A DNA stretch of 64,000 nt from Patescibacteria group bacterium (GCA_049322675.1 JBMORM010000014.1:15896-79895), one strand, 5' to 3'; positions 62,839 through 63,142 are shown, numbered from the stretch's first letter. The notes: a model not told the origin generated them from the sequence alone. Program-made: numbers and translations.

Positions 62839-63142
62839 CCAAAAAAGGCTCAATTTCCAATTTCCAAACAAAAAGATGTCATTCTGGAGCCGAAAGCGTA
62901 ATCGCGCTTCGACGTCCTTAGATCCAGAAAGATAATGTTCGTGTATTTGATATTTTCATTAAAGGGTTATTTCTTTGTGTCTGGATCCTGGATATTGGAG
63001 CGGATTACCTTCCAGCTCCAGGATGACACAGTACGTTGAATTCACTGGAAATTGGTCATTTCCGCCAGAGGCGGATCAGCCTTGGGCTGAGGAAATTTTT
63101 TGAAAATTGGAAATTGCCAGCAGCAGTTCGGTCCCGTGAGGG
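62839..63142 (+). repeat. dispersed intergenic element, copy 2 (long form), enclosing a ~210-nt GC-rich structured core
   Basis: Left end 62839-62860 CCAAAAAAGGCTCAATTTCCAA and right end 63113-63142 ATTGCCAGCAGCAGTTCGGTCCCGTGAGGG are shared with copy 1; the core at 62878-63089 contains a 13-bp closing helix and three clean hairpins. Confidence 0.6.
62878..63089. ncRNA. candidate structured noncoding RNA or element core between rfbD and rfbC
   Basis: GTCATTCTGGAGC (62878-62890) pairs with GCTCCAGGATGAC (63015-63027) with one U-G wobble; GATCCAGA (62921-28) pairs with TCTGGATC (62980-87); CCGCC-AGA-GGCGG (63062-74); CAGCC-TTG-GGCTG (63077-89); GC content well above flanks; no ORF. Confidence 0.35.

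Follow-up and report, generated by a model that had tools for sequence, protein, structure and literature searches.

A gene-less, structurally expanded Ssn-related repeat in the rmlD-rmlC spacer of a Patescibacteria group bacterium

The spacer between rmlD and rmlC in the 64,000-nucleotide stretch of Patescibacteria group bacterium DNA analyzed here (referred to as the window) contains a strongly structured core, and the question raised by this locus is whether the structure belongs to an RNA or to the DNA itself. The core had been predicted to be a structured RNA, namely a riboswitch-like leader of rfbC (rmlC), an sRNA or the cargo of a dispersed element, rather than spacer DNA.

The elements on which the prediction was built are largely present. 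Both neighboring genes were confirmed by Pfam, the spacer between them measures 370 bp, and only mechanical ORFs of at most 52 aa are present, in agreement with the claimed absence of a reading frame. RmlD of the window matches P0001, a protein listed by NCBI under 'Patescibacteria group bacterium', with 100% identity. All helices that had been named were found in place or at most one base off (Table 1); the 13-bp helix is composed of 12 Watson-Crick pairs and one T.G pair. The two terminal hairpins exist as well, but they are located 35 nt 3' of the domain that the 13-bp helix closes, and not within it. Similarly, the proposed GC richness holds for the arms (0.51-0.52) and for the small hairpins, but not for the apical 51 nt; the interval originally delimited (62878-63089) has a GC content of 0.46, as compared to 0.41-0.43 for the rml genes and 0.20-0.32 for neighboring spacers. 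The description as highly structured was fully borne out: a 226-nt stretch reached a minimum free energy of -87.9 kcal/mol (z -6.6), and none of 200 shuffled sequences folded as well. The reverse complement of the core yielded a z of -7.2 at -80.4 kcal/mol, the RNA fold of the plus strand being somewhat more stable. Comparable folding of both strands marks the core as a palindrome at the DNA level. Rather than a multi-helix junction, the 13-bp helix closes one long, imperfect palindrome (62877-63028), and no T-run directly follows the long hairpin.

Table 1. Positions in the window of the rmlD-rmlC spacer, its structured core and the surrounding sequence module.
Feature	Position	Strand	Description
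rmlD	61992-62813		Pfam RmlD_sub_bind, 4e-97
rmlC	63184-63729		Pfam dTDP_sugar_isom, 2e-69
13-bp helix	62878-62890 with 63015-63027		GTCATTCTGGAGC with GCTCCAGGATGAC
8-bp helix	62921-62928 with 62980-62987		GATCCAGA with TCTGGATC
Left SRM-type unit	62877-62928	+	5' tag TGTCAT, three-tier local hairpin, 3' GATCCAG tail
Apical spacer	62929-62979		AT-rich, GC 0.26, between both units
Right SRM-type unit	62980-63028	-	minus strand, 5' to 3': TGTCATCCTGGAGC...ATCCAGGATCCAG; local hairpin intact
GC-rich 31-nt segment	63062-63092	+	GC 0.71, two 5-bp hairpins, outside the palindrome
Hairpin CCGCC-AGA-GGCGG	63062-63074
Hairpin CAGCC-TTG-GGCTG	63077-63089
Second small hairpin with T-run	63076-63100		weakly terminator-like
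Module left flank	62813-62876	+	AATTTCCA-type heptad repeats; inverted-repeat pair with 31478-31525, 92%
Module right flank	63093-63156	+	GAAAATTGG repeats and GCCAGCAGCAGTTCGGTCCCGTGAGGG; pair with 31390-31447, 93%; also in L009
27-mer GCCAGCAGCAGTTCGGTCCCGTGAGGG, exact	31397-31423	-
27-mer GCCAGCAGCAGTTCGGTCCCGTGAGGG, exact	63116-63142	+
Copy 1 of the module	31358-31525		orientation opposite to copy 2
Heptad blocks	2528-2583, 22407-22462, 23833-23888, 31495-31564, 33645-33714
Heptad blocks, continued	34168-34223, 49813-49868, 62813-62871, 63096-63156

The palindrome consists of two inverted units of ~50 nt, separated by an unconserved AT-rich loop. Units of this kind resemble the targets of the Ssn proteins (cd10448, ~94 aa), site-specific nucleases that cut only ssDNA beside a cognate hairpin repeat (Chenal et al. 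2025, PMC11893778). In Neisseria this repeat goes by the name NTS, the general term being SRM (PMC11893778). The relationship was assessed with an nhmmer profile for which exclusively ssn-flanking units of other genomes, six in number, were used. In the 64 kb, this profile detected the right arm at 63028-62980 on the minus strand (E 5.2e-14) and the left arm at 62877-62930 on the plus strand (E 1.1e-9), with no further match beyond these two arms. The doublet is present only once in the 64-kb window, so that within the source genome itself it is a putative repeat.

Furthermore, the ends of the units agree with those of the published repeats. The tag TGTCAT, located at 62877-62882 on the plus strand and at 63028-63023 on the minus strand, conforms to the HGTCWY tag of SRM/NTS, and its positions G2, T3, C4, A5 and T6 are invariant in all 15 aligned units. 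The tail ATCCAG, present in both window units, corresponds to the published order of hairpin and then tail (RNCYNB; ATCYRG in NTS). The frame is CGTC-ATTCCCGC..GCGGGAAT-CYRG in NTS and TGTC-ATCCTGGA..TCCAGGAT-CCAG in this lineage, i.e. the YGTC tag at the 5' side stays unpaired, the hairpin begins and ends with AT, and C-Y-R-G forms the 3' tail. In contrast, the hairpin of the unit is expanded: with ~46 nt and three stacked stems it exceeds the length permitted by the published SRM pattern. Accordingly, the pattern HGTCWYN(0-2)YYVSBRHN(0-5)WNVSBRGN(0-2)RNCYNB has no match in the window or in L001-L015 (the loci from other genomes introduced below), while NTS sequences used as a control do match. 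At best fit, the window arms are three substitutions away from it.

Folded as ssDNA, the left unit reaches -10.2 kcal/mol (z -2.7) and the right unit -11.0 kcal/mol (z -3.7). In the window, the left unit carries a damaged outer stem (GTCCTTAGAT, as compared to ATCCAGGAT/ATCCAGAAT in the family). Covariation of the local hairpins was analyzed across 15 distinct units, and that of the long-range helices across six whole elements. In the local hairpin, 97.4% of the cells are paired, and changes on both sides occur in five pairs (23 cells among the 15 units), as in CGAA/TTCG, TGGA/TCCA and TGAA/TTCA or in ATCCTGGA/TCCAGGAT and ATTCTGGA/TCCAGAAT. Slid controls gave only 26-54% paired cells, and both unpaired cells of the outer stem stem from the damaged left unit of the window. 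RNAalifold independently predicts the identical local hairpin. In one variant, the inner stem-loop GCG-TAAT-CGC is swapped for GCCC-TGCT-GGGC. The long-range helices of the original prediction behave differently: in the six elements, 91% of their cells are paired, but none of the 44 pairs is compensated, and the result is not above that of shuffled sequences. Covariation in the local but not in the long-range helices implies that the long palindrome is best explained as a consequence of the inverted arrangement of two homologous units. A comparison of G.T and A.C changes between the window and its orthologue L009, in which four of five one-sided changes were wobble-compatible on the plus strand, was judged not significant.

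In some related genomes, a gene is located between such units. There, left and right arms bracket a gene for a 99-aa, single-domain GIY-YIG protein (Pfam 2.5e-17), as in L014. This protein is 53% identical to a 94-aa protein of N. gonorrhoeae (pairwise BLASTP 7e-35), and tblastn of the CPR Ssn against a plasmid collection (7.3 Gb) led to the same gonococcal protein with an E value of 6e-13. Both values lie below the threshold for homologues used in the paper (E < 1e-10), so that the CPR protein counts as a homologue; with 99 aa it also lies within the size range of the family (about 94-105 aa). The gonococcal ORF (94 aa) is the sole match in NZ_CP119140.1 and is accompanied by 10 canonical NTS within 3.3 kb; due to its position and length we regard it as the SsnA orthologue. 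As judged from its sequence, the partner protein in the relatives is an SsnA homologue. The PLSDB entries NZ_CP119140.1 and NZ_CP119142.1 (L024), which carry the SsnA orthologue together with its NTS cluster, are listed as plasmids of 2.17 Mb and are evidently N. gonorrhoeae chromosomes. ssn genes typically are flanked by repeats on both sides, the NTS-ssnA-NTS layout being IS-like (PMC11893778), and the inverted units on either side of a GIY-YIG gene of ~95-100 aa in the relatives follow the same plan. Instead of single units or units on both sides of a gene, however, the window contains an inverted doublet that lacks a gene; it also differs in that it belongs to the Patescibacteria (CPR), a group unmentioned in PMC11893778. 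Neither a GIY-YIG ORF nor a tblastn match for ssn was found in the 64-kb window, and alignment of the apical 46 nt to ssn gave a local score of 16 as compared to a shuffle mean of 17.8, so that no remnant of the gene was detected. A literature search for follow-up papers on Ssn returned none.

The distribution of the element was examined by scanning genomes, one per species, with both termini (GTCATYCTGGAGC...GCTCCAGRATGAC). The resulting eight loci (L001-L008) come from seven MAGs and one single-cell genome of six distant groups; according to their record titles these are Gammaproteobacteria, Planctomycetota (Tepidisphaeraceae), Rickettsiales, Bacteroidota (Sodaliphilus), Fimbriimonadales and a Methanomethylophilaceae archaeon MAG. 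At these loci the ends recur in clusters, alongside the variant GTCATCCTGAGC, and a 97-103-aa single-domain GIY-YIG gene is located between such ends in two of the eight. Doublets with the same termini are present in particular at L002 3307-3523 and L003 3598-4801; in L003 the end variants CTGAGC and CTGGAGC alternate in an array around the GIY-YIG gene. The 7.9 kb of the archaeal locus contain no ssn, and this locus may be a contamination. A literature search with the terminal sequence strings returned nothing relevant.

A metagenome scan with the lineage-specific arm pattern yielded L012, L013, L014 and L015. Three of these, L012, L013 and L015, are gene-less doublets in one assembly (GCA_016294905.1), which also bears an ssn gene flanked by units (L023). 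Overall, ssn is bracketed on both sides by the unit family in L014, L016-L022, L025, L023 and L026, but not in the window. The L025 operon has the order rmlD-[doublet]-rmlC-[unit-ssn-unit and partial unit]-rmlB-[doublet]-rmlA, so that the unit-ssn-unit element of the close Patescibacteria relatives (414 nt) is found one spacer further along the rml operon. The 64-kb window contains neither rmlA nor rmlB, apart from a distant epimerase. Scans of viral contigs with the arm pattern and with the small-hairpin segment gave no matches.

In the closest relatives (L025 793-3339; L016; L017), each of three successive rml spacers holds an Ssn-type element, a pattern reminiscent of Neisseria, where NTS have been reported to cluster near genes for surface structures; clustering around cell-surface biosynthesis genes is a further property common to both systems. 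Several contigs begin or end inside the palindromes (the end of L010 at 4972 and, in Logan assemblies, the ends of L016 and L017), i.e. Ssn-type palindromes fragment the assemblies of this lineage.

The orthologous locus itself was found in GCA_036794765.1 (L009/L010), whose RmlD is 88% identical and in whose corresponding spacer the palindrome is present. In L009 the arms are well conserved, whereas the apical loop is different, shorter and unalignable with that of the window; both small GC hairpins are also missing from this spacer, as are ~40 nt of the heptads. In relatives the apical position is taken either by another short AT-rich loop or by the 99-aa ssn gene. The claim that the region is not spacer DNA is upheld, as the core differs from ordinary spacer and its structure is kept at the orthologous locus in L009 and L025. 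In L011, where RmlD is likewise 88% identical, a different gene follows 36 nt after rmlD and no element is present; this site is therefore neither occupied nor a clean empty orthologous site. The ENA contig of L009 ends in an Illumina adapter at 5096-5138 (AGATCGGAAGAGCGTCGTGTAGGGAAAGAGTGT), an untrimmed assembly artefact.

A second copy of the surrounding module in the window gave information on how the core came to its place. Copy 1 has heptad-repeat flanks in common with copy 2, but lacks the whole core and contains only ~25 nt where copy 2 holds the palindrome and the small hairpins. The core is therefore an insertion, and the idea that it is the cargo of a dispersed element stands insofar as it was inserted separately relative to copy 1. 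The 31-nt segment with the two small GC hairpins occurs only once in the window and is missing from the orthologous spacers of L009 and L025 as well as from copy 1; it is a lineage-specific insertion of its own.

Several further observations concern the module. The 27-mer GCCAGCAGCAGTTCGGTCCCGTGAGGG is nearly identical in L009 (5025-5049), and 63039-63092 looks as if it had arisen by tandem duplication of 63094-63142 and diverged since, with 70% identity in the first 30 nt. In place of the element, copy 1 has GAATGATCCTAGA, a possible vestige of a unit end that matches TGTCATCCTGGA at 8 of 11 positions, which is not significant alone. The gene immediately upstream of copy 1 (29619-31358) is a homologue (41%) of the gene immediately upstream of the doublet in L012 (region 4461-6585 of this locus). 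Tandem heptads of the type GGAAATT/GAAAATT (AATTTCC on the other strand) fill many intergenic regions of the window, and in the relatives L013, L015, L014 and L025 the Ssn-type doublets are located between oppositely oriented heptad blocks. The heptads may be a preferred insertion context or a promoter-proximal feature.

When folding of both strands, homology to the ssn-flanking units, local covariation and the near-identical copies described below are taken together, the element is a non-autonomous derivative of an SRM-ssn-SRM unit. We consider it very likely that the window core is a gene-less inverted doublet of hairpin units of the ssn-flanking type, a MITE/REPIN-like non-autonomous counterpart of the unit-ssn-unit element. 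With its damaged left unit, its different apical loop and no ssn within 64 kb, the window copy is probably old and possibly an inert relic.

This reading has to be weighed against explanations at the RNA level. A riboswitch-like or attenuator leader of rmlC, acting in cis in an rmlD-rmlC transcript, would agree with the very stable fold of the plus strand, with the position directly upstream of rmlC, which L009 and L025 share, and with the weak terminator-like hairpin that follows. Yet the same element also occupies the rmlB-rmlA spacer and loci outside rml, and in relatives the same arms are found on both sides of a protein-coding gene. The apical region, the expected place of a ligand pocket, differs from one orthologue to the next by replacement, and the terminator-like hairpins are missing from the orthologues. 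The absence of compensatory changes in the long-range helices likewise speaks against it, so that the combination of a conserved core, covarying long-range helices and a single gene class expected of a riboswitch was not found. The distribution of the element largely refutes the leader, which we regard as highly improbable, and the structured RNA of the original prediction, be it leader or sRNA, is unsupported as the element also occupies spacers unrelated to rmlC. In line with this, a search of the window and eight related loci against Rfam gave no match at the gathering score, and in E-value mode only sub-threshold matches of the palindrome type. The best of these is WsnRNA46 (RF02625) with 25.0 bits on the minus strand (E 0.012) and 19.2 bits on the plus strand, far below its threshold of 65.3.

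The WsnRNA46 match nevertheless raises the question of whether the repeat gives rise, directly or by processing, to a functional small RNA like WsnRNA-46 of Wolbachia. The printed consensus of WsnRNA46 shares the layout, with TGTCATCC..GGATCCAGA arms in inverted arrangement, WsnRNA-46 is among the most multi-copy sRNA annotations (PMC9029176), and all eight sites of the element are co-oriented with transcription. However, the match occurs on both strands and so reflects the palindrome, covariation favors the local unit hairpins, the kind that Ssn-type enzymes recognize in ssDNA, and the published Ssn is inactive on dsDNA and RNA and does not bind RNA (PMC11893778). Wolbachia is one of the SRM/Ssn hosts (PMC11893778), which accounts for the weak resemblance, and a functional small RNA appears quite unlikely. 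The two are alike as multi-copy palindromes of ~150 nt with such arms, and differ in that WsnRNA46 is annotated as an expressed sRNA. The RF02625 consensus itself reads as two inverted units (TGTCATCCGAGTGGCTGACACTGGGATCCAGA ... and its reverse complement), and WsnRNA46 therefore looks like a Wolbachia Ssn-related repeat doublet that was annotated as an sRNA family.

An exapted, REP/BIME-like role of the palindrome between the rml genes, be it in stabilizing the mRNA, in insulating transcription or as a site for RNase III, would be compatible with the Ssn-repeat explanation and does not exclude it. Retention at the orthologous site at 88% RmlD identity and the presence of elements in three successive rml spacers of the relatives point in this direction, and RNase III could plausibly act on a long perfect stem. 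The damaged left unit and the replaced apical part of the window copy, the absence of an element after rmlD in L011 and the lack of a T-run behind the long hairpin argue against it, and we judge such a role unlikely, although an incidental effect at the RNA level within the rml operon may occur. An rmlD-rmlC transcript would be predicted to fold into a long hairpin at the element, for which no sign of selection was seen.

By analogy with the published biochemistry of Ssn, we favor that the Ssn-related element acts as DNA, most likely single-stranded, and not as RNA. Cutting of one strand of ssDNA by Ssn has been published for the Neisseria and Wolbachia pairs only (PMC11893778). If the region became single-stranded during replication, repair or DNA uptake, each unit could fold locally, and a cognate Ssn would bind the folded unit and, as in the case of the Neisseria and Wolbachia enzymes, nick a few nucleotides 5' of the tag. 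With inverted units, nicks at this position would fall on the two outer borders of the element, on opposite strands. Such nicking could lead to spread of the element, in the manner of IS200/IS605 or REP/RAYT, and/or limit the recombination of incoming ssDNA near surface-polysaccharide genes. A control of the recombination of incoming DNA around surface genes by Ssn has been proposed for Neisseria, and the mobility of Ssn elements was put forward by the authors as a hypothesis (Chenal et al. 2025, PMC11893778).

Several properties of the doublets bear on mobility. The two doublets of the L025 operon are 98-99% identical to each other, including the non-palindromic AT loop, and 94-96% identical to L015, a non-rml locus from another assembly; the window copy is only 73% identical overall. 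The borders are sharp at TGTCA...TGACA, and no target-site duplication was found at the borders of six copies. At all eight independent sites the left-type unit (or ssn) is co-oriented with the neighboring genes. IS200/IS605 elements insert strand-specifically into ssDNA relative to replication, and co-orientation fits insertion of this type as well as a constraint at the RNA level and does not discriminate between the two. The near-identical copies at unrelated loci (94-99%), the sharp borders, the missing target-site duplications and the uniform orientation are compatible with gene-less doublets that are actively mobile as non-autonomous elements, moved in trans by an Ssn GIY-YIG ssDNA nuclease, and we put this forward as a tentative possibility. 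An ordinary MITE, derived from an insertion sequence with a DDE transposase, would share the terminal inverted repeats, the small size, the intergenic position and the multiple near-identical copies. Neither of the classical hallmarks of a MITE was found, however: target-site duplications are absent at six of six copies, and the sole gene between the shared ends encodes the 99-aa GIY-YIG nuclease, no parent transposase with the same terminal inverted repeats having been detected there. We therefore consider a DDE-derived MITE very improbable. Keyword searches for literature linking GIY-YIG with MITE or palindrome returned nothing.

Among other known systems, the REPINs and REP-BIMEs mobilized by RAYT are closest in organization. 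There, as here, an inverted doublet of hairpin repeats makes up a longer palindrome and is the non-autonomous partner of one small gene flanked by the same repeats, target-site duplications are absent, and the hairpins are presumed to be recognized as ssDNA. However, the flanked gene here encodes a GIY-YIG nuclease instead of a HUH/Y1 transposase and sequence similarity is lacking, so that the resemblance is functional only. To our knowledge, strand-transfer activity has never been shown for Ssn. Correia/NEMIS, RPE and ERIC elements are likewise short palindromes inserted between genes, and they can be transcribed together with the genes on either side; they come with target-site duplications or DDE-type parents, neither of which applies to the window element.

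Overall, the feature between rmlD and rmlC is a structurally expanded Ssn-related repeat in gene-less doublet form, in a phylum for which this family had not been described before, and a false lead, i.e. an rmlC riboswitch or a dedicated sRNA gene, is thereby removed. As compared to the published work (PMC11893778), the longer three-tier recognition hairpin in Patescibacteria, the gene-less inverted doublet with the exact ends of the ssn-carrying unit and the near-identical doublets at unrelated loci are new. Ssn-type repeats break MAG assemblies and can be mis-annotated as sRNAs, for which WsnRNA46 looks like an example. If the doublets were indeed mobile, the unit-ssn-unit element would represent an unrecognized class of prokaryotic transposable elements, a GIY-YIG analogue of RAYT/REPIN or IS200/IS605, and the elements would be spreading through Patescibacteria and seeding one spacer after another in a surface-polysaccharide operon. 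The main value of the feature is that the Patescibacteria loci provide evidence bearing on whether Ssn elements move.
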